DNA from: an uncultured Deinococcales bacterium
GTDB taxonomy: Bacteria > Deinococcota > Deinococci > Deinococcales > JAAFIG01
Reading direction: 5' to 3'
Length of the DNA stretch: 13,986 nt
Assembly (NCBI GenBank): GCA_964244895.1
Contig: CAXTKV010000143.1
Location: forward strand, 1-13,986
The first letter of the stretch is position 1; every line of letters begins with the position of its first letter. The translations under genes and the position numbers were made by a program. Below, one piece after another: positions 1-13,986 of this stretch. Below the pieces are notes generated by a model. It searched no databases, was not told the origin of the DNA, and was given only the letters and a program-made list of their open reading frames with translations.

Positions 1-26
1 GACGGTCTTCTCGTCCGTGCTCGAGT

Positions 27-32
27 TAAACT
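27..32 (+). promoter_or_regulatory. -10 element TAAACT of a probable leaderless promoter
   Basis: TAAACT lies 6 nt before ATG 39 and there is no Shine-Dalgarno sequence. Confidence 0.65.
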
Positions 33-38
33 CAGCCC

Positions 39-950
39 ATGCCAGACTTTGCCCTGAAAGAATTGCGACCGAACGCGTACTGCCTGCCCGGAGCCGTCAA
101 CGTCGGCGTGATCGGCGCGCCGGACGGTGGCGCGATCCTGATCGATTCCGGCGGCGACAAGGATCACGGCAAGCGCATCCTGAACGCCTGCCGCGCGGCC
201 AATCTGGAACCGAGGGCGATTCTCAACACGCATTCCCATGCTGATCACTACGGCGGCAACGCGTACTTGCAGGCGCAACTCGAGATTCCCGCCTACTGCC
301 CGATCTTCGAGGAAGCCATCCTGAGGTACCCGATTCTCGAGCCGATTTACCTGTATTCCGGCGCGAGACCTCCGAAGGCGCTCCAATCGAAATGGTTGAT
401 GGCGCAGGCATCCGGCACGAAAATCCTCAACGAACCCGGCCTGAAAACCATCGCGGGCGTCGAGTTGGAATTGATTGAAACCTCAGGGCACGCCCACATG
501 ATGTTCAGCGTGCGCTTCGGTGAGGTTTTATACGCGTCCGACGCCGTGTTCGGTTCGGCGCTCTTGCAAAAATACCCGCTGCAATTTGCGGTCGATATCC
601 AGCGCCAGCGCGAGGCCGTGGAAGCCGTGCGGGATTCGGCTCGAGCCTGCGGCGTGCGGGTCGTGCTGCCCGGCCACGGCGATCCGACCGAGGATCTGGA
701 GGGCTTGTGCGGCGCGAACCTGACGGCCATCGAACGCGCGTCCCAGGCGATTTTCTCCGCCTGCCACGACCCCGGAACCCTGCCTGAAATCCTGGAGCGC
801 GTCTGCGCCATGCTCGAGATCGCGATGACCGACATGGCGCGCTACCACCTCAACCAGACGACCGTTCTGGCGCACTTGACGGATCTTCTAGAACACGAAC
901 GGGTCGCGGCAGAAATCTTTAACAATCGCTTGCTGTGGCGCGCGATCTGA
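39..950 (+). CDS. MBL-fold metallo-hydrolase
   Basis: 303-aa ORF with ILIDSG, THSHADHYGGN (HxHxDH), GH, ASD and LPGHG metal-ligand motifs; the C-terminus may be a helical or winged-helix extension. Confidence 0.9.
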   Translation: MPDFALKELRPNAYCLPGAVNVGVIGAPDGGAILIDSGGDKDHGKRILNACRAANLEPRAILNTHSHADHYGGNAYLQAQLEIPAYCPIFEEAILRYPILEPIYLYSGARPPKALQSKWLMAQASGTKILNEPGLKTIAGVELELIETSGHAHMMFSVRFGEVLYASDAVFGSALLQKYPLQFAVDIQRQREAVEAVRDSARACGVRVVLPGHGDPTEDLEGLCGANLTAIERASQAIFSACHDPGTLPEILERVCAMLEIAMTDMARYHLNQTTVLAHLTDLLEHERVAAEIFNNRLLWRAI

Positions 951-1056
951 ACGCGGTACCGAGCCTGAAACCAGCGCCGTTTACGGGTCTTTCGGGGTCT
1001 GGGCGGCTGCACACTTGAGCCCGGCGGTCTGGGCCTTCACACTTCATCTCGGGCAA

Positions 1057-1085
1057 TTGCCGAGAATCGCTTCGGGTGTCATACT
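1057..1085 (+). promoter_or_regulatory. Putative sigma70-type promoter, TTGCCG-17 bp-CATACT with extended TG
   Basis: TTGCCG at 1057-1062, TG at 1077-1078, CATACT at 1080-1085; ATG at 1096 has no SD. Confidence 0.5.
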
Positions 1086-1095
1086 TTTGTGGTAC

Positions 1096-1818
1096 ATGGC
1101 GCACAAGCGAATCCTGGTGGTGGCCGACATGGTTCACCCCTTCATCTACCGGGACGCGTTCCCAGGCGGCCTCGAGCCGATAGACCTGATCCTGTGCGCC
1201 GGGGATTTGCCTGGGTACTACATGGAATTCCTGGCGACCCGCGTTCCCGCGCCGGTCGTGTACGTTCACGGCAACCACGGCGAGGAAAAAGTCAAGGATT
1301 ACCTGGGGAAAGAAGCGCCACCGTCCGGCGTGGAAAACGCGCACGGTCGCGTGGTTCGAGCCGCCGGGTTGATCATCGCGGGCTGGGGTGGCGCACCCCG
1401 GTACCGAGAGGGCGGTGAAGGCCAGTACACGGGTTTCGAGGCGCGCGTGGGCCTGGGCAAGCTCAAGCTGCCCCTGTGGTGGAGTCAACGCCGCGAGGGT
1501 CGGGCATTGGACATCTTCTTGACGCACGCGCCGCCGCCGGGGCCGCACGCGGGCTCCGATTTCGCGCACCGTCCGTGCCGCGCGCTCGGCGAGTTCGACG
1601 CGCGATACAAGCCCGCGCTGCACGTCCACGGGCACGTTCACGCCTACGAGGGCAAGAAGGTCGAGTACACCACGCCCGAAGGCACGCGCGTGATCAACGC
1701 CTACGGTTACAAGTTGCTCGAGGTCGACCTGCCCGTCCTGACCAAAAAATCGCGCGTCTCGCAAACCGAAGCGCGCCAGAGCGACGTGTCGCTGGCCGCC
1801 AGCGCCAACCGACGCTGA
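1096..1818 (+). CDS. Calcineurin-like metallophosphoesterase (Icc-related)
   Basis: Motifs VVAD, AGDL, VHGNH, LTHAPP and HGHVH. Start moved to ATG 1096 (MAHKRILVVAD) because family-like sequence begins there. Confidence 0.88.
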   Translation: MAHKRILVVADMVHPFIYRDAFPGGLEPIDLILCAGDLPGYYMEFLATRVPAPVVYVHGNHGEEKVKDYLGKEAPPSGVENAHGRVVRAAGLIIAGWGGAPRYREGGEGQYTGFEARVGLGKLKLPLWWSQRREGRALDIFLTHAPPPGPHAGSDFAHRPCRALGEFDARYKPALHVHGHVHAYEGKKVEYTTPEGTRVINAYGYKLLEVDLPVLTKKSRVSQTEARQSDVSLAASANRR

Positions 1819-1840
1819 AAAGACTCTCCAGCAGGGAACT

Positions 1841-1864
1841 GAAATCTCGCGTCCAGGACGGTCT
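1841..1864. repeat. REP-like unit (single copy)
   Basis: gaaatctcgcgtccaggacggtct is a 23/24 inverted match to 2955-2978 and is followed by CTCGAG at 1866. Confidence 0.75.
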
Positions 1865-1970
1865 ACTCGAGTCGCGCGCTCAGGGTGTCTGACGATTCAC
1901 AGATGCGAGACGGGTATCATCTATGCTCAGTGAGACGGACGGGGTTCCGTCCTGAGCACCGGAGGTGAAC

Positions 1971-2885
1971 GTGTCCATCCAACACCAACAGGCCGAACGC
2001 GATGCAGAAACGGCCATGCGTCGGGCCTTCATTCACGATATCCTGCACGTTCTGCGCGGCGAACCGAACGAACTCCTGCCGTTCGAGGCGGTCAAGACGC
2101 TCCGTCCGCGCGGCGAGCATTACAAGGGCATGCAGACGATCCCCCTGGAAAACATCATCGGTAGCGTGGATCGCTACCGCGATTTCGACGAGACCTTCCT
2201 GCCCAAAACTGAGCACCTGGTGGATCGCTGGGTCAACATTCGCCGCTTGAAGCTCGAGGGCAAGGAATTGCCGCCGATTCAGGTCTACAAGGTCGGCGAG
2301 ACGTATTTTGTGAAGGACGGCAACCACCGCGTCAGCGTGGCCCAGGCCGAAGGCCAGAAGTACATCGACGCCGAGGTGATCGAACTCGACGTGGCCGTGC
2401 CGCCCGTGCCGGGCGACGAACTCAAGGACCTGATCATCAAGGGCGAGTACGCCTGGTTTCTCGAGCAGACGCACCTGGACGCGGAGCGCGTCGGTCATTA
2501 CGAGATCCTGTTCAGCACGCCGGGCCGCTACGACATCCTCCTGGAGCACATCCGCACCCGCCAGTACTACCTGGGCGAAAACTTTCAACGCGCCGTCCCC
2601 TGGGAGGAAGCCGTCGGCAGCTGGTACGACCGCCTGTACCAGCGCATGGTCGACGAGATGCGAGCCACCAACACCCTGCGTTCCTTCCCGAGCCGCACGG
2701 AAGCCGATCTGTACCTCTGGATGATGGATCACCGCTACTACCTGACTGAGCAATACGGTCACGATGTCGGATCGAAAATCACGGTCGTGGATTTCACCCG
2801 CAACCACCGCCCGCCGTGGCATTCCAGATTCTTGAAACGGCTCTCCTCGTGGTGGAACCGCACCACGGAGCGCGTCCGGGTCTGA
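1971..2885 (+). CDS. ParB/Srx-like N-terminal domain plus DUF4032-like C-terminal protein
   Basis: LPPIQVYKVGETYFVKDGNHRVSVA is a ParB/Srx-type signature; two related C-terminal segments (EHIRTRQYYLGE and WMMDHRYYLTE). SD GGAGG at 1961-1965 supports GTG 1971 over GTG 1965. Confidence 0.8.
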   Translation: MSIQHQQAERDAETAMRRAFIHDILHVLRGEPNELLPFEAVKTLRPRGEHYKGMQTIPLENIIGSVDRYRDFDETFLPKTEHLVDRWVNIRRLKLEGKELPPIQVYKVGETYFVKDGNHRVSVAQAEGQKYIDAEVIELDVAVPPVPGDELKDLIIKGEYAWFLEQTHLDAERVGHYEILFSTPGRYDILLEHIRTRQYYLGENFQRAVPWEEAVGSWYDRLYQRMVDEMRATNTLRSFPSRTEADLYLWMMDHRYYLTEQYGHDVGSKITVVDFTRNHRPPWHSRFLKRLSSWWNRTTERVRV

Positions 2886-2953
2886 ATTGAGCCGGTCTCG
2901 AGCACCGTCTCGGGTTCGAACGAAACGACGCGTCCGCTTTCCACGTAACCGGG

Positions 2954-3013
2954 AAGACCGTCCAGGACGCGAGATTTCTTTTCTTAAGAATGTTGTCTCG
3001 GACGGTCTTTTTT
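2954..3013 (+). repeat. REP-like inverted doublet followed by a T6 run (possible terminator)
   Basis: aagaccgtcc (2954-2963) and ggacggtctt (3000-3009) form a perfect 10-bp inverted repeat; T run at 3008-3013. Confidence 0.7.
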
Positions 3014-3161
3014 GTGTGCGCTCGATTGTGCGCGTCGGCGCTATGGTGAACTTCACGGGCGCTCTCATGCTCGACGGTTAACGTGTGCCGTCGCTCGAGC
3101 TGTGAACGAGGGTTTCAACACCACGGCTTGACGGGTGTTCGAGAGCACCGAGGAGGTTGTC

Positions 3162-3602
3162 ATGAAACGCGTCCTGCGCGCCCTGATCGTTGTGTTGGCC
3201 TGTTGTTCCGTGGCCGAAGCCAGAGATTACTTCGGCGTCCGTCTGGGGTTTCCGGGTCTCGGGCTGCAAGTCGGCTCGACGGATCTGATCTCTCGGAACC
3301 TCGGCGGGCGTCTGACGGTCGATTTCGTGTACTTCCGCAACGGCGCGGTCGTCGGCGGCGACATCCTGTACACGCTGAACTTCGACACCCGCCGCTCAGC
3401 CCTCGATTTCGCGCTGTACTTCGGGCTGGGCGTCGGCCTGGGCGTGTCCAACAACGCCTTCGATTACGACCTGCACGGGGTGATCGGCTTCGAGTTCCTG
3501 CCGATCCGCGACCTGGGTTTGTTCGTCGAGGTGCGCCCTCTGGGATTCACGACAGGCGGATACTACTTCGGCGGCGCGATCGGGCTGAACTTCGGGCTGT
3601 AA
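3162..3602 (+). CDS. Exported protein, probable small outer-membrane beta-barrel
   Basis: SD AGGAGG at 3151-3156; signal peptide MKRVLRALIVVLACCSVAEA; Gly/aromatic alternating strands ending GLNFGL. Confidence 0.7.
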   Translation: MKRVLRALIVVLACCSVAEARDYFGVRLGFPGLGLQVGSTDLISRNLGGRLTVDFVYFRNGAVVGGDILYTLNFDTRRSALDFALYFGLGVGLGVSNNAFDYDLHGVIGFEFLPIRDLGLFVEVRPLGFTTGGYYFGGAIGLNFGL

Positions 3603-3685
3603 TCGGACGCGAGCCATCGGCGAGCCCGGCAATTTCGAGTCGGGCTGGGCCTCGGAATCCTGGCGTAGCCCGGCCCGAGAAAGTC

Positions 3686-3736
3686 GAATAGACCGTCCTG
3701 GACACACATATTTCTTGCGTTCAGGACGGTCTATTC
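3686..3736. repeat. REP-like inverted doublet
   Basis: gaatagaccgtcctg (3686-3700) and caggacggtctattc (3722-3736) form a perfect 15-bp inverted repeat. Confidence 0.85.
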
Positions 3737-3858
3737 TGGTTTTTGAGTGATATGAAATACGGGCTCGAGAAGCCAGTTCGGATACGTGCCACGCGGATTT
3801 TTTGCCCGGCGGTGGTGAGCCGTGACCGAATCGCCCGTCACCCACGCGAAGCAGGCCG

Positions 3859-3864
3859 TATACT
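3859..3864 (+). promoter_or_regulatory. Putative -10 element TATACT
   Basis: Near-consensus -10 about 17 nt upstream of SD AGGAGG (3881-3886). Confidence 0.5.
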
Positions 3865-3892
3865 GCCACAGACGTTTTCAAGGAGGCATCGG

Positions 3893-4459
3893 ATGACCAC
3901 CTTTTCGAGCACGGCACGCGCCATCGCAGTCGCAGTCGCCGCACTGGCGTTCAGCAATCCGGCCCTGGCCGGGCCGAGCGCGTTCGTGGAACGGGCCGCG
4001 CAGCTCAGTTTCGGCTACAGCGCGATCACCAATCCGGGCGTCGCCTTCGGTGTCGGCATCGAATTGCCCGTGGAACTGCCCTTTCCAATCGATTTCAGCC
4101 TGGGTGCGGACATCAAGTACGCGGGCAGCCTGAGCGGCGACCTGACGGCCAAGGCGCTGATCTTTCCGGCGCTGGGCGGCAACCCGCCGATCGGTCTGGC
4201 GGTGGCGGTCAAACTGAGCGCCTTGCAGGTCTTCAACACCTTCGGTGTGCGATTCGGGCTGGGGCCGGTGGTCAGCTTCGATTTCTCGCCGTTGGTGGTC
4301 AGCGCCAGCCTGATGCCGAGCATCGGCTGGCCCGGAATCTCGCTCGATCTGGGATTGGGCGTGCGCTACTACCTCGACCCGATCGCGATAGAGGCGGCGC
4401 TCGAGTGGGCGACCTGGGGCGATTTGCGCGCCACCGTCGGATTTCGTTACCTGTTCTAG
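3893..4459 (+). CDS. Exported protein, probable outer-membrane beta-barrel
   Basis: SD AGGAGG at 3881-3886; signal peptide ending PALA; amphipathic strands (LDLGLGVRYY); C-terminal beta-signal-like VGFRYLF. Confidence 0.72.
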   Translation: MTTFSSTARAIAVAVAALAFSNPALAGPSAFVERAAQLSFGYSAITNPGVAFGVGIELPVELPFPIDFSLGADIKYAGSLSGDLTAKALIFPALGGNPPIGLAVAVKLSALQVFNTFGVRFGLGPVVSFDFSPLVVSASLMPSIGWPGISLDLGLGVRYYLDPIAIEAALEWATWGDLRATVGFRYLF

Positions 4460-4524
4460 GGCTTTCAAAATTGCACCAGAGGCTCGAGCCGATCCGTTCC
4501 CTCGAGCAGATCGAGGTCTGAGCC

Positions 4525-5406
4525 GTGAATCCCGCCCTTGCCAAACCCACTCCTCGCGGTCGCGTCAGTATTCTGCGCCCGGCCTGGTGGGGCGTGATTC
4601 CGTCATTGACGCTGCTGGTGTTGTTCATCGGTTACCCGCTGGTGCAGGTCATCGGCATCTCGACCCTCAAATGGGACGGTGTGGTGGCCGGTCAGGGCAT
4701 CGGGGCGGGCAACTACCAGCGCTTGCTGACCGACCCGGACCTGGGTCGCAGCTTGTTGATCACGCTGGCCTTCGCGGCGCTGACCCTGCCGATGTTCGTG
4801 TTCCTGTCCGCATTGACGGCGATGGAACTCGAGGGTGGGCGCTTCGAGCGTTCCCTCAAGGCGCTCCTGTTTTTGCCCGGTCTGTGGACGGTCGGGGCGA
4901 GCGCGATCGGCTGGTACACGCTCTACTCGCCAGAGTACGGCTTGCTGGCGAGCGTCACGAACGGGTTTTTGAGCCTGCCGTGGGATTCTCAGGGTTGGGC
5001 GGCGCTGCTCTTAATCGCGGCCTTCACGATCTGGCAGCACGTCGGTTACGGCGTGCTGGTCGTATCTGCGGGTCTGAAGGGCATTCCATCAGAGGTGCTC
5101 GAGGCGGCGCGCGTGGACGGCGCGAGCGAATCCCAGTTGCGCTGGCGGATCGTGCTGCCGTTGCTGCGCCCATCGCTGGTGTTTTTGAGCGTGGTCGGGT
5201 CGCTGTACGCGCTTCAATCCTATACGGCGGTGCTGCTCTTGACGCAGGGCAGACCGTTCGGTTCGACCCGCGTGATCGGGTATTTCCTGTACGAAACTGC
5301 CTTCGTCAAATTCGAGTTCGGCTACGGCGCGGCGCTGTCCGTGATGGCGCTGATCCTGGCCTTCACCGTGGCGGGCGCTCAGGCGCGTCTCCTGAGGGCC
5401 GATTGA
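4525..5406 (+). CDS. Carbohydrate ABC transporter permease (MalF/UgpA-like)
   Basis: Hydrophobic segments; EAA loop EVLEAARVDGAS; LLTQGRP and FGYGAALS motifs. Confidence 0.9.
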   Translation: MNPALAKPTPRGRVSILRPAWWGVIPSLTLLVLFIGYPLVQVIGISTLKWDGVVAGQGIGAGNYQRLLTDPDLGRSLLITLAFAALTLPMFVFLSALTAMELEGGRFERSLKALLFLPGLWTVGASAIGWYTLYSPEYGLLASVTNGFLSLPWDSQGWAALLLIAAFTIWQHVGYGVLVVSAGLKGIPSEVLEAARVDGASESQLRWRIVLPLLRPSLVFLSVVGSLYALQSYTAVLLLTQGRPFGSTRVIGYFLYETAFVKFEFGYGAALSVMALILAFTVAGAQARLLRAD

Positions 5407-6242
5407 TTCCCGTCGCCCGCCCTCACGATCCCAGGGAACGCGTCTCGAGCGGCGCGATCCCGCGCGGCACGTGGTTCGGTCGGGTGGTGGTGGGATTGCT
5501 GGTGATTTTCATCGCCGCACCGATGCTGTGGCTGGCGTACAGCGCCTTCATTCCCAAGGAAGCGCTCTTTTCCGGCGCGACCATTCCCGTCGGCTTCACG
5601 ATGAACAACTTTCTCGAGCTGCCGTTCGCGGAACTGATCCGACCGCTGATCGTCAGCCTGGTGCTGTCCAGCCTGGTGGCCGTGCTGAACGTCGGCATCG
5701 CGCTGCCCGCCGCCTTCGCGATCCGTTCTGGCACGCCGATATTGGGCGCGTACCTGTTCTTGTTGTCCGTGCCGGTGGAATTGCTGTTGATCCCGTTGTA
5801 CGGGCTCTTAAAGGACCTGCACCTGCTGAATTCACCGTTGGCGATGGTGCTGCCGTTTCTGGCCAGCCCGTTCACGGTGTTCTTGATTTACGGCGGTCTG
5901 GTGCGGTTGCCGTGGGCGTACGTCGAGGCGGCCAAGCTAGACGGCGCGAACAACCTTGCGATCATCGTGCGCGTGATCGCACCGTTGCTGCGCCCGGAAC
6001 TGACGGCGGCGGGCGTGCTGGCGTTCGCGGCGCACTGGAATCTGGTGCTGTACCCGGCAGTCGTGATGAACGATCAGCGCTGGTGGACGGTGCAGGTCGC
6101 GCTGACGAATTTATTGCGCAAAGACCCGAACAACTGGGGCGGGCTGGGCGCGGCGGCCATGCTGACCAGCATCCCGATTCTGATTCTGTACGTGATTTTC
6201 GAGCGCCGAATCACGCGCACGATCGAGGGCGGGTTGAAGTAG
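5403..6242 (+). CDS. Carbohydrate ABC transporter permease (MalG/UgpE-like)
   Basis: EAA loop YVEAAKLDGAN, HWN, and C-terminal IEGGLK. Probable TTG start at 5403 overlaps the upstream stop (TTGA); the exact start is uncertain. Confidence 0.85.
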   Translation: MIPVARPHDPRERVSSGAIPRGTWFGRVVVGLLVIFIAAPMLWLAYSAFIPKEALFSGATIPVGFTMNNFLELPFAELIRPLIVSLVLSSLVAVLNVGIALPAAFAIRSGTPILGAYLFLLSVPVELLLIPLYGLLKDLHLLNSPLAMVLPFLASPFTVFLIYGGLVRLPWAYVEAAKLDGANNLAIIVRVIAPLLRPELTAAGVLAFAAHWNLVLYPAVVMNDQRWWTVQVALTNLLRKDPNNWGGLGAAAMLTSIPILILYVIFERRITRTIEGGLK

Positions 6243-6293
6243 AACCAGTCTCGAGCCCGCACGCGAGGGTTCCGGCGTCTCCCGAAACGGCGG

Positions 6294-6299
6294 TAAACT
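6294..6299 (+). promoter_or_regulatory. -10 element TAAACT of a probable leaderless folC promoter
   Basis: Lies 7 nt before ATG 6307; no SD. Confidence 0.65.
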
Positions 6300-6306
6300 C
6301 GTTCGG

Positions 6307-7584
6307 ATGCAGGAACAGATTGATTGGCTGTTCGCGCAACAAGAGCGCGGTATGCACCCTGGACTGGGGCGGATGGAGGGCTTGCTGGAGCGCCTCGGTC
6401 ACCCGGAGCGCGCCTTCAGGTCGGTGCAGGTGGCCGGCACGAACGGCAAGGGTTCGGTCACGCGGATGCTCTCGAGCATGATCGAAGCGGCGAAACTCGA
6501 TCCAAGTTGGGGGCCAGTAGGGGAGTACACCAGCCCGCACCTGCACCGCGTCAACGACCGGATTCGGGTCGGCGGTATCTCGATTGCGGACGCGAAACTC
6601 GAGGGGCTGATCGAGCGTTTTCGGGATCTGAACGCGGACATCGGCGCGACGTTCTTCGAGCTGCTGACGGCCATGGCGCTGGAGCACTTCAAGGATTGCG
6701 GCGTGAAATGGGCGATTCTGGAAGTCGGGCTGGGCGGGCGGCTCGATGCCACGAGCGCCGTGCCAGCCGAGTTGTCCGTCATCACCAACATCGGCCTGGA
6801 TCACACGGAATACCTGGGTGACACGCTGGAATCGATCGCGTTCGAAAAGGCGGGGATTCTTCGAGCGAACGTCCCCGCACTGACGGGCGCGATCGGTGGG
6901 GCGCTCGAGGTCATCCGGGCTCGGGCGACGGCACTGGGTGCGCCGCTGTGGGTGCTGGGCGAGGACATCCGGCTCGAGTACCGCAACCTTTCGCTGGACG
7001 GGCTCGAGATTGACCTGACCACGCCGCTCGGCTCATTCCGGGGTCGCACGCACCTGCGCGGCGACCATCAGGCGAGCAACGCAGCGCTCGCCGTCGCCGC
7101 CGCGCAACGCCTCGGGCTGCCGCCACGAGCCATTCAGGGCGGCCTCGAGAACGCCCGCTGGCCTGGAAGGCTCGACCTGGTTCCGGGCGCGCCACGGACG
7201 CTCGTGGACGCCGCACACAACCCGGACGGGGCGCGCGCGCTGGCGCGGTTCGTGAACGGCCTCCGGATCGAACACGTCACGCTGATCGTGGCGGGCTTGG
7301 CGGACAAGGATCTGGAAGGAATGGCCGCCGAACTCCACGGCATCGCTAAAAACGTGATCGTCACGCGCCCCAGCTTCGCGCCTCGAGCCGCGATGCCCGA
7401 ACAGATTGCGGCCTTCTATCCGGGCTCGCGGATCGCACAGACCGTGCGGGACGCGCTCGAGACCGCCGCAAAGATCACCCCGAAGGATGGCCTGATCGTC
7501 GCCGCCGGAACGATTGCGCTGGCGGCGGAAGTGCTGGAGCATCTTCGGCGTCTCGAGCCCGAGGCAAGAGCGCGCTGGCAGTGA
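6307..7584 (+). CDS. folC: Bifunctional folylpolyglutamate synthase/dihydrofolate synthase
   Basis: Motifs VAGTNGKGS, YTSPHL, EVGLGGRLDAT, IAFEKAGI, WPGRL and DAAHNPDG. Confidence 0.97.
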   Translation: MQEQIDWLFAQQERGMHPGLGRMEGLLERLGHPERAFRSVQVAGTNGKGSVTRMLSSMIEAAKLDPSWGPVGEYTSPHLHRVNDRIRVGGISIADAKLEGLIERFRDLNADIGATFFELLTAMALEHFKDCGVKWAILEVGLGGRLDATSAVPAELSVITNIGLDHTEYLGDTLESIAFEKAGILRANVPALTGAIGGALEVIRARATALGAPLWVLGEDIRLEYRNLSLDGLEIDLTTPLGSFRGRTHLRGDHQASNAALAVAAAQRLGLPPRAIQGGLENARWPGRLDLVPGAPRTLVDAAHNPDGARALARFVNGLRIEHVTLIVAGLADKDLEGMAAELHGIAKNVIVTRPSFAPRAAMPEQIAAFYPGSRIAQTVRDALETAAKITPKDGLIVAAGTIALAAEVLEHLRRLEPEARARWQ

Positions 7585-7587
7585 ACA

Positions 7588-7637
7588 GGAACACCGTCCA
7601 GCACGCAAGTTGAAAGGTGCGTGCTGGACGGTATTCC
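7588..7637. repeat. REP-like inverted doublet
   Basis: accgtccagcacgca (7593-7607) and tgcgtgctggacggt (7618-7632) form a perfect 15-bp inverted repeat with a ggaa/ttcc outer extension. Confidence 0.85.
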
Positions 7638-7667
7638 CGTGTGGCGCACCCCGTCCTGCGGCGGCTC

Positions 7668-7676
7668 TGGTACGAT
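7668..7676 (+). promoter_or_regulatory. Extended -10 (TG-n-TACGAT) of a probable leaderless hisC promoter
   Basis: TACGAT at 7671-7676 lies 6 nt before in-frame GTG 7683. Confidence 0.6.
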
Positions 7677-7682
7677 TCGTGC

Positions 7683-8849
7683 GTGAGCAAAACCCTCCCG
7701 ACCGCCCTCGAGAACGCCGCGCCCGAACGCGCCGCAGTAGAAAGCGCTGCAGTAGAAAGTGCTGCACTGGAACGCGCTGCGCTCGAGCAGGCAGCCCGCA
7801 ACGCCGTCCGCCCCGAGATTCGCAACGCGCCGCATTACCCGTACACCGTCTACGACGCGCCGGTCAAGCTTGATCAGAACGAGAGCCCGCACGATTTCCC
7901 GCAGGAACTCAAGGCGCTGGCGGTGGAGCGCGCGCTGGGCGCGCACTGGAACCGTTACCCGGACATCCACGCGGACGGTTTGCGCGCGAAGCTCGGCGCG
8001 TTCGAGGGCTGGAATCCTGAAGGCGTCGTGATCGCGTCCGGGTCGAACGTGCTGATCTACGCGCTGACCCAGATCGCCGGGATCGGGCAGCGGGTGCTGA
8101 CCCTCGCACCCGCTTTCGCGCTCTACGCGTTGGGCGCGAAATTGCTCGGGTCGCAATTGCAGGAATTGCCGCTGGAACCGGATTTTGAATTGCCGATGGA
8201 CGCGCTGCTGAACGAATTGCGCGCCGGAGGGCCGGGATTGCTGTACCTGGCCGAACCGCACGCGCCATCCGGCAAACTGCACGATATCGCAGAGATCAGG
8301 CGGATTCTCGAGGCCGCGCAGGATGGCTGGATCGTCGTGCTGGACGAGGCGTACCACCAGTTCGCGGGCCGCGATCACCGCGCGTTGGCGCTCGAATTCG
8401 GCAACGTCGCGATCCTGCGCACCTTCTCTAAGGCCTGGGGGCTGGGCGGCGTGCGGCTCGGCTATTTGCTCGCGCACCCCGGCCTGGCGCTCGAGGTGCA
8501 GAAAATGATGCTGCCGTTCAGCATCGGCGCACTCAACCAGGCCGTACTGGATGTGGCGCTCGAGCATCCGGGCTACGTGCAAACCAGGGTCGAGGAGACG
8601 CTCCTCGAGCGCCGACGCGTCTACGAGGCGTTGCTTGAACATCCGTCCTGGACGGTCTATCCATCCCAGGCCAATTTCTTGTTGATCCGCACGCCAAACG
8701 CGGCTCTGGCACACCGCGCGCTGCTGGAACGGGGCGTGCTGGTCAGACGCCAGGACAGCTACGCGGGGCTGGCGGGTTGCATTCGCGTCTCCATCGGGAC
8801 GCGCCAAGAAAACGATGCTTTCTTGAAGGCCGCCTCGGAGATCGCGTGA
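7683..8849 (+). CDS. hisC: Histidinol-phosphate aminotransferase
   Basis: Motifs KLDQNESP, RYPD, LDEAY, LRTFSKAWGLGGVRLGY (PLP lysine), PSQANF and IRVSIGT; adjacent to hisB. Confidence 0.95.
   Translation: MSKTLPTALENAAPERAAVESAAVESAALERAALEQAARNAVRPEIRNAPHYPYTVYDAPVKLDQNESPHDFPQELKALAVERALGAHWNRYPDIHADGLRAKLGAFEGWNPEGVVIASGSNVLIYALTQIAGIGQRVLTLAPAFALYALGAKLLGSQLQELPLEPDFELPMDALLNELRAGGPGLLYLAEPHAPSGKLHDIAEIRRILEAAQDGWIVVLDEAYHQFAGRDHRALALEFGNVAILRTFSKAWGLGGVRLGYLLAHPGLALEVQKMMLPFSIGALNQAVLDVALEHPGYVQTRVEETLLERRRVYEALLEHPSWTVYPSQANFLLIRTPNAALAHRALLERGVLVRRQDSYAGLAGCIRVSIGTRQENDAFLKAASEIA
7701..7790 (+). repeat. Six degenerate 15-bp tandem units encoding about AA(L/V)E(R/S) at the HisC N-terminus
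   Basis: accgccctcgagaac | gccgcgcccgaacgc | gccgcagtagaaagc | gctgcagtagaaagt | gctgcactggaacgc | gctgcgctcgagcag. Confidence 0.8.
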
Positions 8850-9448
8850 GCCGCGCAGCGCCCGACCGGAGTGCGGTCGTGGAACGCGACACCAATGAAA
8901 CGCAGATCAGGCTCTCGCTCGACCTGGATCGCGCCCTTCCCGGCGCGCTCGAGACGAATCACGGCTTCACCACGCACATGCTGGATGCCCTGCGTCGGCA
9001 CGGCAAGATCGGGCTCGAGGTTACGGCCACCGGCGATCTCGGGGTGGACGTGCATCACCTGGTCGAGGATCTGGGCATCACGCTCGGCCAGGCGCTGGCG
9101 CGGGCGCTCGCCGATAAGACGGGCATCGAGCGCTACGCGGACGCCTTCGTCCCGATGGACGAGAGCCTGGCGCAGGTCGTGCTGGATCTGTCCGGACGGG
9201 CGCACCTGGAATTCCGACCCGAGGAATTGCGCGTCCAGGGCGATGTGCAGGGCTTCACCATCTACCACCTGCGCGAATTCCTGCGCGGCTTTTGCAACCA
9301 TTCGGGAACCACCATGCACGTGCGCGTGCTGGCCGGGCGCGAGGTTCACCACGTCAGCGAAGCGATCATCAAGGCCTTCGCTCGAGCCCTCTATGCCGCC
9401 ACCCGTGTCACATCCAACGCGCTGCCCAGCACCAAGGGCAGCCTGTGA
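8846..9448 (+). CDS. hisB: Imidazoleglycerol-phosphate dehydratase
   Basis: Motifs RDTNETQI, HML, DVHHLVEDLGI, PMDE, HHVSEAIIKA and PSTKGSL; GTG start overlaps the hisC stop (GTGA). Confidence 0.97.
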   Translation: MSRAAPDRSAVVERDTNETQIRLSLDLDRALPGALETNHGFTTHMLDALRRHGKIGLEVTATGDLGVDVHHLVEDLGITLGQALARALADKTGIERYADAFVPMDESLAQVVLDLSGRAHLEFRPEELRVQGDVQGFTIYHLREFLRGFCNHSGTTMHVRVLAGREVHHVSEAIIKAFARALYAATRVTSNALPSTKGSL

Positions 9449-9458
9449 GGGAGGTGCC

Positions 9459-9803
9459 GTGAGCCGCACCGAATACGTCAAGCTCGAGATCTTCGTGCCC
9501 GCCACGCACCTGGATGCCCTTCAGGACGCGCTGCACGAGATCGGCGTCGGCAAGATCGGGCTTTACGATCACTGCTTCGCCGTGACCAGCATGACGGGCA
9601 TGTTCAGACCGCTGCCAGGTTCCACCCCGTATTCCGGCACGCCCGGTCAGGTCAGCCGGATGCTGGAATTCAAACTCGAGACGCGCTGCCCCAAACCGCT
9701 CGTGCGGGCCGCGCTGGAGGCCGTCCGGCGCGTGCATCCCTACGAGCAACCCGTGGTGGACGTGATCCCGTTGATGAACCACGAATTCGATACGGACATG
9801 TGA
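9459..9803 (+). CDS. Stand-alone NIF3/YqfO central-domain-like (PII/CutA-like fold) protein
   Basis: SD GGAGGT at 9450-9455; motifs KLEIFVP, GKIGLYDHC, GMFRPLPGSTP and VHPYEQP. Confidence 0.85.
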   Translation: MSRTEYVKLEIFVPATHLDALQDALHEIGVGKIGLYDHCFAVTSMTGMFRPLPGSTPYSGTPGQVSRMLEFKLETRCPKPLVRAALEAVRRVHPYEQPVVDVIPLMNHEFDTDM

Positions 9804-9833
9804 GCTCTGTTTCTCGAGTACCCGTGAGGCGCG

Positions 9834-10451
9834 ATGAAAACCTTATTGATCGATTACGGTTCCGGCAACCTGCGCTCTGCGGCGAAGGCCCTCGAGGTCG
9901 CGGGCTTCGAGGTTCAGGTCTCGAGCGACCCCCGAGACGCGCGACGCGCCGACGCGCTGGTGCTGCCGGGTCAGGGCCACTTCCGGCAGGTCATGGAGAG
10001 CTTCCTGGCGTCCGGCTTCGAGGACGCCGTGCGCGATCACATCGGGGCGCAGAAGCCCTTTTTGGGGATCTGCGTCGGCATGCAAATCTTGTTTGAATCG
10101 AGCGAGGAATCCGACAAGCCCGGCCTGGGCGTTCTGCCGGGTCGCGTCAAACGCTTCGTGAACCTCGAGAAATCGCGCCCCGTGCCGCAGATGCAGTGGA
10201 ATCGCCTGATGCCCGTCGGCGATTCCCCCTTGATGCGCGGGCTGGGCGAAGCGAGCTTCGCGTACTTCGTGCATTCGTACTACGCGCCGCTCGAGGTCGC
10301 TCAGGACGGCGCGGTCACGAATTACGGACTGGATTTCCTGAGCGTGATTTCTCGGGGCCACCTTCACGCCACGCAATTCCACCCGGAGAAATCTCAGCGC
10401 GTCGGGTTGAAACTGCTCGAGAATTTTCGCGTCTGGGCCGAGAACGCCTGA
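9834..10451 (+). CDS. hisH: Imidazole glycerol phosphate synthase, glutaminase subunit
   Basis: Motifs IDYGSGNL, LPGQG, GICVGMQ (catalytic Cys), YFVHSY and QFHPEKS. Confidence 0.97.
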   Translation: MKTLLIDYGSGNLRSAAKALEVAGFEVQVSSDPRDARRADALVLPGQGHFRQVMESFLASGFEDAVRDHIGAQKPFLGICVGMQILFESSEESDKPGLGVLPGRVKRFVNLEKSRPVPQMQWNRLMPVGDSPLMRGLGEASFAYFVHSYYAPLEVAQDGAVTNYGLDFLSVISRGHLHATQFHPEKSQRVGLKLLENFRVWAENA

Positions 10452-10461
10452 GCAGCACGAT

Positions 10462-10517
10462 TCGAGAACACCGTCTGGGGCGCGTTTCGCGATTCGCGTG
10501 CCGGACGGTGTTCTCGA
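10462..10517. repeat. REP-like inverted doublet between convergent genes
   Basis: tcgagaacaccgtc (10462-10475) and gacggtgttctcga (10504-10517) form a perfect 14-bp inverted repeat. Confidence 0.85.
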
Positions 10518-10668
10518 GCCAACCGCTCGTGAGGTCAGATCAAATCGTCTTTGGGCGGTAGCTCCCTGAACGATGCGAGGTCATCTCCTCGTCCGAGACC
10601 GCAATATCGAGAATCAGACACCGACAACATCAATCGCGATCTGATAACCGTCCTCGAGCGATGCAGCC

Positions 10669-11517
10669 TCAGTTCAAGCCGTACTTCGCCGCTCCCTCGC
10701 GCAAGAATTTCATGCCGCCCGCCGCGAGTTCCGCGCCCGTGTGCTTCGGGGCGCGCCACAGGCAGGTGGCCGCCGCCAGCGCCGGGTTGATCGCCGCGAA
10801 GGATTCCAGCGTCAGGTAACCGGAAAAACCCGAGTCCTTGAGCGCCAAAAAAACCTGATCCCAGTTGACCGTGCCCGTGCCGACCATGCCCCGATGGGAT
10901 TCGCTCATGTGGACGTACTCCAGCACGTCTTTGGTGGCCAGGATCGGATCGCGGAAACCTTCCTCCTCGATGTTCATGTGGTACGTGTCCGCGTGCAATT
11001 TCAGGTTCGACGCGCCGACGTGCAAGATGGTTTCTCGGGTGTCCGCGAGCGTGTTGTAGAGGTACGTCTCGTAGCGGTTGCAGGCTTCCAGGCCGAGCGT
11101 GATGCCCATGCCGCGCGCGCGCTCCGCCAGCACCCCGAGCGTGTCCACGACCGTCTGGCGCTCGGCTGGCTTCGGGCCTACTCCAGTCAGGTGCCCGAGG
11201 TGGTACGCGATGCAGCCGCACAGGTAATTCGAGCCGATGGCGTCCACTTTCTCGAGCGCTTTGGTCAGGAACGCCAGGGCTTCCTTCGGGCGATCCGGCA
11301 TGTGCGCGTCCACAGGCAGCACCAGTGACGCCGTGGCAAAAATCTTGTTCTGCTCGAGTTCGCGTTTGTGGCTGGCCGCGTCGAAACCGTCCGGATCGAG
11401 CAAGGGAATCTCGATGAACTCCGCGCCCGCTCTGGCGGCGGCGCGGATGGCCTCGTTGCCGCTTTGCGTGTTCCACTCGCCGATCCAGACGAAGGCGTGT
11501 GCGCCGTATTTGATCAT
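10669..11517 (-). CDS. Ketose 3-epimerase family protein (D-psicose/D-tagatose/L-ribulose 3-epimerase-like TIM barrel)
   Basis: LEACNRYETY, DTYHMNIEE, HMSESHRG and LTLESF give the E-D-H-E metal site; SD GGGAG at 11523-11527 supports ATG 11517. Confidence 0.88.
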   Translation of the reverse strand: MIKYGAHAFVWIGEWNTQSGNEAIRAAARAGAEFIEIPLLDPDGFDAASHKRELEQNKIFATASLVLPVDAHMPDRPKEALAFLTKALEKVDAIGSNYLCGCIAYHLGHLTGVGPKPAERQTVVDTLGVLAERARGMGITLGLEACNRYETYLYNTLADTRETILHVGASNLKLHADTYHMNIEEEGFRDPILATKDVLEYVHMSESHRGMVGTGTVNWDQVFLALKDSGFSGYLTLESFAAINPALAAATCLWRAPKHTGAELAAGGMKFLREGAAKYGLN

Positions 11518-11546
11518 TGTGACTCCCGTGTTGTGGTCATGAATTG

Positions 11547-11552
11547 AGGATA
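11547..11552 (-). promoter_or_regulatory. Putative -10 element TATCCT (internal promoter for the epimerase)
   Basis: TAnnnT hexamer 6 nt upstream of ATG 11540 on the minus strand. Confidence 0.5.
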
Positions 11553-11591
11553 ACGCGACGGGCAAGTTCGGTGCATTTCGGACGCGTGAAC

Positions 11592-11646
11592 CTCGAGAAC
11601 ACCGTCCGGGACGCATATCAAAAACACCGTGTGGAACGGTGCTCTC
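11592..11646. repeat. REP-like inverted doublet (degenerate)
   Basis: ctcgagaacaccgtccgggacgc ... acggtgctctc; 11-bp arms with 1 mismatch. Confidence 0.7.
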
Positions 11647-11649
11647 TCA

Positions 11650-11687
11650 TTCCTTCCCCTCACGCGGTGCTGAGTGAGGGGAAGGAA
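11650..11687. terminator. Strong hairpin downstream of the sugar-binding protein gene (terminator or mRNA stabiliser)
   Basis: ttccttcccctcac (11650-11663) and gtgaggggaaggaa (11674-11687) form a perfect 14-bp stem; there is no clear U-tract. Confidence 0.5.
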
Positions 11688-11748
11688 CGAGGGCTAAGGG
11701 ATCGCCTGGCGTTGCAACGTCTTGAGATCGCGCGGTTCGTCTCGAGCC

Positions 11749-12684
11749 TTACTTGGCGTTCTCTTTGGTGATCAACCCGACCGGGCTCTCCAGGCTGTCA
11801 GGCACGGGGCGGCCCTTGAGAATCTTGAGCATCGCCTCGACCGCGATCTGGGCCATCTCGTCGGGGTTCTGCGCGACCGTGCCCGCCAGATCACCCGCTT
11901 TGACGGCGGCCACGGCTTCACCGGTGCCGTCCACGCTGAAAATCTGGATCTGACCTTTCTTGCCCGCCGCCTGCACCGCTCGCGCCGCGCCGAGGCCCAT
12001 GTCGTCGTTGGCGCAGAAAATCACCTTGACGTTCGGGTTGGCCTGAAGCACGTTGCTGGCGACGTTGAAGGCCTTGTTGCGATCCCAGTCGGCGGGTTGG
12101 CTGGACACGACCTTCAAGCCGCCCGCTTCGACGTTCTTGCGGAAGCCTGAAACCCGATCCGCGCTCGAGGACGTGCCCGCCGCGCCCTCGATGATCGCGG
12201 CCTCGGAACCCTTGGCGACCAGCTTGAGCGCCCGCAGCGCGGCCAGCTTGCCCGCCGTGACGTTGTTGGACGCGACGCGCACGGCGATGTCCACGCCGTC
12301 CTTGGTGGCGGCGTCCTCGGGGATGATCTCGTCGATGTTGATGATCGGGATTTTCTTGGCGGTGGCTTTGGCCAGACCCGAATTCAAGCTGGTGGCGCGA
12401 AACGGTGTGACGATGAAACCGTCGAAACCGCCCTGGTTGAGCCACGTCTCGAGCACCGCGAGCTGTTGATCGGCGGCGTTTTCGGTCGGTGTGGAACCCG
12501 TCACGATGTCCACGTTCATGTCCTTGGCAGCGTCCTGGTAGCCTTTTTTCATCGTCAGGAAGTACGGGTTGGATTCGTTCTTGAATAAGGCCCCGATCTT
12601 GAACTTCTTCGTCTGGGCGCTGCCCGTTGTGGCAGCCACCAGCGCGGCGAGCATGAGTGCTGAAGCGGCGATGCGTGCGTTCAT
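11749..12684 (-). CDS. Sugar ABC transporter substrate-binding protein, RbsB family, AlsB (D-allose-binding)-like
   Basis: Signal peptide; motifs SNPYF, IINIDE, AIIEGAAG, SQPADWDRNKA, IFCANDDM and TVAQNP; SD GAGGAGG upstream. Confidence 0.9.
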   Translation of the reverse strand: MNARIAASALMLAALVAATTGSAQTKKFKIGALFKNESNPYFLTMKKGYQDAAKDMNVDIVTGSTPTENAADQQLAVLETWLNQGGFDGFIVTPFRATSLNSGLAKATAKKIPIINIDEIIPEDAATKDGVDIAVRVASNNVTAGKLAALRALKLVAKGSEAAIIEGAAGTSSSADRVSGFRKNVEAGGLKVVSSQPADWDRNKAFNVASNVLQANPNVKVIFCANDDMGLGAARAVQAAGKKGQIQIFSVDGTGEAVAAVKAGDLAGTVAQNPDEMAQIAVEAMLKILKGRPVPDSLESPVGLITKENAK

Positions 12685-12742
12685 AAGAACCTCCTCGTGT
12701 TCACTCGAGCCATCCGACCCGAGGTCTTTCCGGTTTCAGTGG

Positions 12743-12801
12743 ACACCATCCAGGACGGTGTTTTTGTCATCTCGAGAAATACCGTCTGGGACGGTCTTCT
12801 C
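12743..12801. repeat. REP-like doublet with a central CTCGAG
   Basis: acaccatccaggacggtgt (12743-12761), CTCGAG at 12771, accgtctgggacggt (12781-12795). 12790-12801 is identical to window positions 1-12. Confidence 0.8.
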
Positions 12802-12837
12802 AGTGAATCGCTCACGCCATGCACCACCCCTTTCGCG

Positions 12838-13842
12838 TTAACGCGTTTTGCCCTGACGCCTGCGCCATTGATCCAGCACGGCGGCCAGGATGATCACGCC
12901 ACCGATCACGAGTTGCTGCCAGAAGCTCGGGACGTTCAGGATGTTCATGCCGTTCCTGACCAGGCTGATGATCAACGCGCCCACGACCGTGCCGGAGATG
13001 CTGGCCACGCCACCGGACAGGCTGGTGCCGCCCATGACGGTCGCGGCGATGGCGTCGAGTTCGAAGAATTGCCCCGCGTTGGAATCCGCTGTGGACAACC
13101 GCGCCGTCAGCAACGCCGCCGCCACGCCCGTCAACAGCCCGCACAGGCCGTAGACCAGCACCTTGTAGCGATCCACGTTAATGCCCGCCAGCCGCACGGT
13201 TTCTTCCCTGGAACCGATGGAAAGCGTGTACTTGCCGAAGCGCGTCTGCGTCAATGTGAAAGCGCAAATGACCGCCAGCACCAGCGAGATGATGACTGGA
13301 ACGGGAATCTCGAGGATCGATCCGGCGAAGATCGCGTTGAAGCGCGTGCCGTAATCGTAGACGGGTCGGCCCTCACTGATGACCTGCGCCAGCCCCCTGA
13401 AAATGCCCATCGTGCCCAGCGTCACGATAAACGGTTGCAAACCCAGCCTCGAGACCATCAGGCCGTTCAGCACGCCGCAGACCGCGCCCGTGGCCACGGC
13501 GATCAGGAAGCCCGTCCACGGGTCTACGCCCGCGCGCATGGCGAAGGCCGCTGCAAGCCCGCCCAACGCCACGACCGATCCCACCGACAAATCGATCCCG
13601 CTCGAGGCGATCACGAAGGTCATGCCCAGCGCGATGGTCAGGTTGATGGCGGCCTGCAAGAAGACCTGGCGGGCGTTGTCCAACCGCAAGAAGTATTGCT
13701 CGCCGCGCACCACCGGCGTGATGATCGCCAGCACCACAACCATCACCAGCAGCACCAGGAAAATCCCGTAGCGCGTCACGAAATCGCTGAAGTTCAGTGC
13801 CCCGCCCGGCCTGGCCTGCGCGCGAGTCTGCGGTGCGTTCAT
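12838..13842 (-). CDS. Monosaccharide ABC transporter permease (RbsC/AlsC-like)
   Basis: Motifs GMTFVIASSGIDLSVGS, QPFIVTLGTM, TRFGKY and ELDAIAATVMGGTSLSGG; SD GGAGG upstream. Confidence 0.93.
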   Translation of the reverse strand: MNAPQTRAQARPGGALNFSDFVTRYGIFLVLLVMVVVLAIITPVVRGEQYFLRLDNARQVFLQAAINLTIALGMTFVIASSGIDLSVGSVVALGGLAAAFAMRAGVDPWTGFLIAVATGAVCGVLNGLMVSRLGLQPFIVTLGTMGIFRGLAQVISEGRPVYDYGTRFNAIFAGSILEIPVPVIISLVLAVICAFTLTQTRFGKYTLSIGSREETVRLAGINVDRYKVLVYGLCGLLTGVAAALLTARLSTADSNAGQFFELDAIAATVMGGTSLSGGVASISGTVVGALIISLVRNGMNILNVPSFWQQLVIGGVIILAAVLDQWRRRQGKTR

Positions 13843-13986
13843 TTGTGCCTCCGGCGCGCGCTTCGCGCGCCCGAATCCGACTCGCTCGAGACGGATGGCG
13901 TGGGCGGGGCGCTCGATCCCCTGACCTGAAGCGCAGTCGGCAAGCGCAACTCGGTGATCGGTGCGTCGGGCGTCTGAATGCGCTGC
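13839..13986 (-). CDS. 3' end of a probable LacI-family transcriptional regulator (partial, runs off the window)
   Basis: Open frame QRIQTPDAPITELRLPTALQVRGSS...RRRHK* resembles LacI C-termini (RI..P...L.VRGS); its stop overlaps the permease ATG (ATGA). Confidence 0.7.
   Translation of the reverse strand, partial: QRIQTPDAPITELRLPTALQVRGSSAPPTPSVSSESDSGARSARRRHK

Follow-up and report, generated by a model that had tools for sequence, protein, structure and literature searches.

The stretch of DNA studied here (the window) comprises the 13,986 nucleotides of contig CAXTKV010000143.1 of assembly GCA_964244895.1, from an uncultured Deinococcales bacterium, and the element in question is the hexamer CTCGAG, which recurs through nearly its whole length. 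We find that the excess of CTCGAG is real, that it extends over the entire family of the source organism, and that it is a variant of the highly iterated palindrome (HIP) phenomenon of cyanobacteria; a link to the AddAB complex is put forward as a proposal, and an unproven one. HIP1 has gone unexplained for three decades and has been treated as cyanobacterial and methylase-linked. CTCGAG represents an independent HIP case in another phylum, graded from no excess to nearly 7 sites/kb within one order, and since this graded excess is apparently free of a methylase, models based on methylation and on a reader protein become separable.

The window is contig C143 of the source genome (G000; a 5.12 Mb assembly in 328 contigs, 91% complete). 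An initial annotation of the window had counted 61 CTCGAG sites by hand against about five expected; the exact count is 61, at positions 20 to 13885, versus 4.7 expected from base composition (the window has a GC content of 63.5%) and 6.2 from a first-order Markov model. Genome-wide, we count 21,883 sites (4.27/kb), which makes CTCGAG the commonest hexamer, nearly twice as frequent as the next one, and the top hexamer under Markov models of orders 0, 1 and 2 (12.7-, 9.1- and 9.8-fold excess). All 328 contigs bear it, at 1.6-9.1/kb. Under the order 1 model the next palindromic hexamer reaches 3.1-fold and the HIP1 core CGATCG 0.59-fold, most palindromic hexamers falling below 1. Called genes hold 3.75 sites/kb, whereas the DNA outside them reaches 6.1/kb and short spacers 8.0/kb. 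After a shuffle within genes that preserves both proteins and codons, a 4.2-fold excess is left, distributed over every frame (3.6-fold for Leu-Glu, 12.7- and 6.8-fold for the other two); Leu-Glu codon bias alone is therefore insufficient, as the annotation had argued, and the excess neither disappears on codon shuffling nor is confined to the window, the two outcomes that the annotation had named as contrary to its view.

The proteome bears the imprint of this excess. Leu-Glu is the most over-represented dipeptide in the proteins of the source genome (2.11-fold, with Glu-Leu at 0.99-fold), 74% of coding CTCGAG sites fall in the Leu-Glu frame, and Leu-Glu pairs are written CTC-GAG in 59% of cases, rising to 64% in the relative G008, where 1.5% would be expected. 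Among HisB, HisC and HisH orthologues, members of the source family carry 9.0 Leu-Glu pairs and 7.4 sites per kb versus 2.8 and 1.5 in other loci, and hence the proteins themselves have changed to fit CTCGAG (the loci used for orthologue comparison include no folC orthologue). The hisB site in the xCT-CGA-Gxx frame is present in 7 of 14 family orthologues versus 1 of the 42 other orthologues that cover the position.

We compared 251 genomes of the order under lineage labels that are inferred: the uncultured source family (f1; the source genome and 18 relatives) and the Trueperaceae-like (f2), Deinococcaceae-like (f3), Marinithermaceae-like (f4) and Thermaceae-like (f5) families, the last with a Thermus-like genus (g9) and three Meiothermus-like genera (g13, g22 and g24). 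One unpublished genome, G250, is counted in tallies only. The 18 relatives carry 4.6-6.8 sites/kb and almost no GAGCTC, so that the 19 family members span 4.3-6.8/kb; GC content in the pieces examined is about 45-60%, and in G008 (GC 47%) the excess is 45-fold under the order 1 model. Densities are 1.4-3.5/kb in g13, g22 and g24, 0.7-2.9/kb in f4, 0.3-2.6/kb in f2, 0.6-1.6/kb in g9 (about equal to the reversed control) and 0.01-0.46/kb in f3, which is without excess in the sample tested. After synonymous shuffling CTCGAG ranks first in the samples of G006, G008, G042 and G103 and in pooled low-GC f2 loci, and not in those of g9, f3, G120, G141, G051 and G021. Densities and ranks together establish the excess as an order-wide, graded trait with its peak in the source family.

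Site evolution was followed in alignments to G008 of relatives from genus g5 (four genomes with 46-72 kb each, the source genome itself lying outside). Coding CTCGAG sites of G008 are intact at 89% in G017 and 76% in G012, the figures for all hexamers being 71% and 33%. Polarised synonymous losses amount to 0.35-0.39 of expectation, measured against a control that slightly favours conserved regions, and all six substitution types lie at or below expectation. At conserved Leu-Glu pairs, 11 of 198, 21 of 241 and 32 of 197 G008 sites were lost in G017, G016 and G012, respectively, and 24 of 64, 26 of 66 and 32 of 49 pooled control codon pairs. Two-state gain rates at conserved Leu-Glu are 3-5 times those of controls; polarised gains, with 2-5 events per trio, are too scarce to be of use. 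Within the source genome, two filled Leu-Glu sites within 200 bp of each other in one gene co-occur less often than under permutation, at ratios of 0.73, 0.91, 0.96, 0.93 and 0.97 (z from -4.9 to -1.9), and nine control dipeptides show no consistent short-range co-occurrence deficit. Taken together, the loss, gain and co-occurrence tests indicate that CTCGAG is read as a whole six-letter unit, with loss slowed, gain sped up and slight saturation. These data fit selection and a conversion drive alike, and the two cannot be told apart by them.

The palindrome hence has the attributes of the HIP class, in agreement with the initial annotation, which had called it HIP-like. HIP1 (GCGATCGC) and the alternate HIPs of cyanobacteria are likewise palindromes that form the top over-represented word, occur in all frames and in coding and non-coding DNA, are conserved beyond codon constraint and spread by substitution, as far as described in the portions of PMC4390886, PMC5861425 and PMC13756078 that concern them. 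It is not HIP1 proper, being an unrelated hexamer in another phylum: the closest HisB relatives are metagenome-assembled genomes titled 'Deinococcales bacterium'. A further difference concerns methylation. In Elhai's account HIPs go together with methylases, S. elongatus being among the exceptions, whereas for CTCGAG no cognate methylase was found, and profile searches of the source family's genomes returned no resident methyltransferase reading part of the word.

What, then, maintains the excess? The annotation had offered two explanations, an orphan methyltransferase with biased repair and a binding protein acting in repair, nucleoid organisation or DNA uptake; the methylase half finds no support, and a sequence-reading protein in repair or uptake fits best. 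Our preferred reading, held tentatively, is that CTCGAG is kept by a methylation-independent reader, possibly AddAB acting on a palindromic Chi-like site. A bolder version, which we regard as somewhat more doubtful, would make CTCGAG the first palindromic Chi site, read by Deinococcales AddAB and multiplied by biased repair between chromosome copies to one copy per 150-230 bases, with codons and amino acids recast on the way. AddAB degrades DNA from a break until it meets Chi, and it would halt the chewing of a broken chromosome at CTCGAG. A CTCGAG allele on the broken copy would then be kept, while a copy lacking it would be resected beyond that point and restored from an intact donor, resulting in biased gene conversion toward CTCGAG between chromosome copies or from incoming DNA. 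Deinococcus and Thermus have multi-copy chromosomes. Such a bias would act at all six positions, raising gains and lowering losses anywhere, would fade as sites crowd, and would spread with time over newly acquired genes, in keeping with low-GC islands of which some have few sites and others the full density; as a side effect, CTCGAG would mark self DNA against end-degradation.

The phylogenetic profile suggests that the CTCGAG excess tracks AddAB across the order, the family without excess (f3) being the AddB-less one. In the source genome AddB lies at C128:11522-14110; AddA comes next and is interrupted by the contig end. AddB profile matches, a few of them weak and in incomplete or AddA-less genomes, were obtained in 17 of the 18 relatives in f1, 70 of 71 genomes in f2 (69 of 70 leaving out G250), 21 of 23 in f4 and 67 of 68 in f5, that is, in 175 of 180 genomes apart from the source genome. 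The f3 genomes gave only weak matches (E 1e-19 or weaker; 16 of 70), and addAB is stated in PMC9751324 not to be found in Deinococcus. The one f1 relative without an AddB match, G008, has AddA. The f2 genome without one, G120 (2.1 Mb, 96% complete), has no AddA, AddB or ComEC match (L369-L373, L431), and its CTCGAG count, at 1.3-fold, shows no clear excess, other low-GC f2 samples reaching 2.7- to 11-fold. G120 gives the impression of a lineage that has lost both end-resection and competence.

The candidate reader itself is recognizable. AddA and AddB scored below the Gram-positive NCBIfam cut-offs, and their assignment draws on the best-scoring family, the pairing of the genes and a match to the Protein Data Bank; a 32-sequence AddB profile matches Bacillus subtilis AddB (3u44_B) with an E value of 3.4e-10 and retains Walker A, an Asp-Gly motif II and four cysteines. 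With Chi-pocket positions taken from the description of B. subtilis AddB in PMC4614115, the scaffold is kept at Q42, W73 (as Y), F210 (as F or Y) and E217 (mostly E), and the base-reading T44 and R70 differ, as would be expected for a different Chi. This mapping rests on profile alignment because the structure model was poor (mean pLDDT 53.8, pTM 0.36). As for a link between pocket residues and the strength of the excess, all six g9 AddB sequences compared have alanine at the R70 equivalent and aspartate at the E217 equivalent, with counter-examples to such a link in G065, G204 and g24. Two further peculiarities of AddB may be recorded: the family protein (L334:3523-6108) carries, after position 210, about 30 inserted residues that are not in g9 or g13 AddB, and in that of the source genome a short peptide is duplicated in tandem near position 600. 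NucS does not fit: an f3 genome has it and a g13 genome does not (4 of 5 tested).

Like the Chi sites of AddAB and RecBCD (AGCGG in B. subtilis, GCTGGTGG in E. coli, as given in PMC4614115, PMC3321194 and PMC3384302), CTCGAG is a short word over-represented on the chromosome, in a host whose AddAB has a conserved Chi-scanning scaffold. Several points weigh against the AddAB reading nevertheless. Known Chi sites are described as G-rich (PMC3321194) and skewed to the leading strand (PMC3384302); CTCGAG, as a palindrome, can be neither, and its over-representation is far stronger. In the source genome its one-mismatch neighbours are unskewed as well, in a comparison of low power and weak strand assignment. 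CTCGAG is accordingly not classed as a Chi site, and Chi activity is a prediction for a candidate. About two independent losses underlie the AddAB profile. Whatever other gene has been lost in f3 would match the pattern just as well, and since G120 also lacks ComEC it does not separate AddAB from DNA uptake. AddB pocket residues show no clean correspondence with the strength of the excess. Genus g9 has AddAB and no excess (odds ratio 0.5); it has a TaqI-type methylase in 32 of 32 genomes and avoids TCGA palindromes, an avoidance that may mask the excess. G141 has AddAB at an odds ratio of 1.2, and several high-GC f2 samples lie at 1.0-1.6. Finally, the repulsion between sites is weak, and nearly absent beyond 30 bp when anchors other than Leu-Glu are used. 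As for a conventional rival in the source genome, no strand-skewed Chi-like hexamer stood out beyond noise (largest residual z 3.8, with weak strand assignment over 67 contigs).

If the AddAB reading is true, the Chi site of Deinococcota would be named, a repair signal would be shown to reshape a proteome, and highly iterated palindromes would have a general way to arise that needs no methylase, with self DNA marked without methylation; a practical prediction is that adding CTCGAG improves gene transfer into these hosts. Because the excess extends to groups that include cultured members (g13, g22 and g24) and addAB mutants of Thermus are already available (PMC9751324), the Chi hypothesis is directly testable. 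A literature search, which for the most part did not reach subscription papers and took in supplements of Blow et al. only, found no publication on a CTCGAG excess in this phylum; within the same reach, none was found on a palindromic Chi or a Chi drive.

Among the alternatives the best survivor, although we think it unlikely, is an uptake or transformation signal, in which a competence receptor prefers DNA with CTCGAG and alleles carrying it spread by molecular drive. The DNA uptake sequences of Neisseria and Pasteurellaceae are in genome-wide excess and reshape proteins, as CTCGAG does, and uptake predicts the same reduced loss, raised gain and protein imprint. The source genome and 17 of its 18 relatives have ComEC, a competent host being common to both cases, and G120 lacks excess and ComEC alike; HIP1, moreover, raises transformation in cyanobacteria according to PMC13756078. 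Known uptake sequences are longer than CTCGAG, however, and not palindromic, and competent relatives do without the excess: ComEC occurs in 68 of 70 f3 and 32 of 32 g9 genomes. AddAB therefore fits the f3 pattern better than uptake does. Conversely, G228, a one-contig genome with AddB and no ComEC match, still shows a mild excess (an odds ratio of 2.1 over 20 kb), and no specific receptor was identified, no search having been aimed at receptors.

Rather improbable, in our judgement, is a methyl-directed repair ratchet after Elhai's model, in which a family-wide methylase that escaped detection marks CTCGAG, which biased mismatch repair both generates and preserves. Active orphan N6-methyladenine (m6A) CTCGAG methyltransferases are recorded in Meiothermus and Marinithermus, members of the same order (Blow et al., 2016; PMC4752239, including its S3 table), Elhai's model predicts a saturation such as that seen in the Leu-Glu co-occurrence deficit, and the source genome is only 91% complete. 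The passages of PMC4752239 on these enzymes report no genome-wide excess, however, and for Nocardia they describe CTCGAG as a local cluster at oriC only. As references we took the Eco57I-family methylases of G042, which is XhoI-type since a 52% homologue adjoins a broken PF04555 gene in G031, and of G025 (M.TaqI-like); neither matches the source genome. The XhoI-type enzyme is sporadic (17 of 251 genomes) and occurs in 1 of the 18 relatives at only 32% identity, and in g13, where 6 of 26 genomes have it, the mean density is 2.15/kb with the enzyme and 2.15/kb without it. TaqI-type methylases occur in 35 of 251 genomes and in none of the 19 of the source family (none of the 18 relatives); with one in every g9 genome, the lineage that always has the enzyme shows the least excess. 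The XhoI endonuclease (PF04555) was found in 7 of the 251 genomes and in none of the 19, and the site is enriched instead of avoided, which is not the picture of an XhoI/PaeR7I-type restriction-modification system. Pfam searches of the family for PF07669, PF01555, PF00145, PF02086 (5 genomes tested) and PF02384 returned mixed, often low-GC matches, and comparison of the loci all against all (30, 0, 30, 9 and 0, respectively) gave no family-wide orthologue. The one-contig G006 has no PF01555 match, one low-GC C5 (cytosine-5) enzyme, type I and IIG enzymes, and two D12 enzymes without counterparts in the source genome. The latter's own methylases (BREX PglX, type I HsdM, a low-GC beta-class and a low-GC D12 enzyme, and one small N6 candidate on C50) are rejected as the cause, none being shared family-wide. 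A C5 methylase with Vsr-type patch repair is rejected too: C5 enzymes are found in all 18 relatives and not in the source genome, the 30 loci compared form several unrelated groups, and base-specific repair conflicts with protection against every type of substitution. Judged from these gene contents, the CTCGAG excess is probably methylase-independent, an enzyme of an unrecognised family being possible. We also observed that the TaqI-type methylase (32 of 32 g9 and 2 of 2 g30 genomes; L037, L439-L441) appears to be a core gene there and not a mobile one, that BREX-type BrxC and PglX genes occupy a contig end of the source genome (C139:8421-14325) with type I restriction-modification genes on C122, and that on C114 a low-GC beta-class methylase and its neighbour lie within a 2.3 kb stretch devoid of CTCGAG.

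To a binding site for a nucleoid- or chromosome-organising protein, held by weak purifying selection as in the model of Xu et al. for HIP1, we assign a similarly low probability. The sites are conserved beyond codons, a dimeric binder suits a palindrome, and the spread of CTCGAG over the source genome is more even than that of four control hexamers (dispersion at 1 kb of 0.98 versus 1.2-1.3). On the other hand, no helical phasing appears in site-pair distances up to 120 bp, the amino-acid change in HisB, HisC and HisH exceeds what weak selection usually brings about, and there is no candidate protein. A functionless, neutral bias of context-dependent mutation or repair is less probable again. 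Spacing near random (coefficient of variation 0.96), density highest where constraint is lowest and old low-GC islands at full density would all agree with it, but such a bias would need to shield all six positions from transitions and transversions while also speeding gain, and it does not predict short-range repulsion. Last, a by-product of Leu-Glu codon usage, repetitive extragenic palindromic (REP)-like repeats or restriction-site avoidance, for which the share of Leu-Glu among coding sites, the 1,784 of 21,883 sites within reach of a REP-like core and the depletion of most other palindromes might speak, is extremely improbable and is refuted by the excess that survives synonymous shuffling, above all off-frame, and by the 5.7 sites/kb in intergenic DNA off REP cores, relatives without the REP-like repeat having even more sites.

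The genes of the window are ordinary by our own gene calls (an MBL-fold hydrolase, sugar ABC transporter parts, folC, hisC, hisB, hisH and an epimerase), and its 61 sites divide into 36 in-frame Leu-Glu, 3 xCT-CGA-Gxx, 5 xxC-TCG-AGx and 17 outside called genes (Table 1). The three xCT-CGA-Gxx copies are those that the annotation had listed; of its xxC-TCG-AGx copies four recur, the fifth, at 5444, counting only if its gene starts upstream of the called 5484, and our gene calls add the one at 12164. The five sites that it had placed 2-11 nt past stop codons are indeed there. Such positions are not special, since over the whole genome 419 sites fall within 10 nt after a stop, compared with about 320-400 in later 10-nt bins.

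Table 1. Location of CTCGAG copies in the window; single numbers give the first base of a site.
Feature	Position	Strand	Remark
CTCGAG copies, dispersed	20..13890	.	61 copies; 8 of them coding in non-Leu-Glu frames
Leu-Glu sites, first third	279, 336, 813, 1171, 1717, 2253, 2460, 4400, 4828, 5098, 5613, 6598
Leu-Glu sites, second third	6904, 6973, 7003, 7144, 7456, 7552, 7707, 7782, 8307, 8490, 8559, 8604
Leu-Glu sites, last third	8948, 9014, 9483, 9675, 9891, 10164, 10290, 10416, 11251, 11353, 12448, 13309
xCT-CGA-Gxx site	640..645	.	in MBL-fold gene 39-950
xCT-CGA-Gxx site	7382..7387	.	in folC
xCT-CGA-Gxx site	9381..9386	.	in hisB, encodes Ala-Arg-Ala
xxC-TCG-AGx site	6471..6476	.	in folC
xxC-TCG-AGx site	9920..9925	.	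in hisH
xxC-TCG-AGx site	12164..12169	.	minus-strand sugar-binding protein gene
xxC-TCG-AGx site	13448..13453	.	minus-strand permease gene
xxC-TCG-AGx site	13601..13606	.	minus-strand permease gene
Intergenic site	2897..2902	.	11 nt past stop at 2885
Intergenic site	6250..6255	.	7 nt past stop at 6242
Intergenic site	9813..9818	.	9 nt past stop at 9803
Intergenic site	10653..10658	.	10 nt beyond stop of minus-strand epimerase gene
Intergenic site	11741..11746	.	2 nt beyond stop of minus-strand binding-protein gene
Site edging REP-like hairpin repeat	1866..1871	.	core near 1850
Site edging REP-like hairpin repeat	10513..10518	.	core near 10497
Site edging REP-like hairpin repeat	11592..11597	.	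core near 11601
Site edging REP-like hairpin repeat	12771..12776	.	core near 12781

The REP-like hairpin repeat, with core AACACCGTCC, is dense in the source genome (about 5,059 matches to the core at one mismatch, of which 4,072 lie outside called genes) and rare in the relatives' loci examined; CTCGAG directly precedes 375 of its 2,913 seeds, and cores in the window lie at 1850, 2957, 7593-7620, 8644, 10497, 11601-11628 and 12781. Other palindromes are strongly avoided in the source family, GAGCTC numbering 0-161 per genome in the 18 relatives, and in 240 kb of G008 (family loci L124-L135) 15 of the 64 palindromic hexamers are absent, with many C5 and N6/N4 methylases present. In G042 (L141-L143) the words next in enrichment after CTCGAG are G-rich hexamers containing GGTG, possibly reflecting codon-pair bias or a conventional Chi candidate. 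All four CRISPR-like arrays detected by script, in G000 (C36 near 30814), G008 (L128:14152), G042 (L142:2599) and G152 (L332:2170), have CTCGAG within the repeat, which parallels the HIP1 core in the CRISPR1 repeat of Synechocystis noted in PMC6604393. Lastly, contig C151 of the source genome carries about 24 tRNA genes in one array, and CTCGAG lies in four of them.

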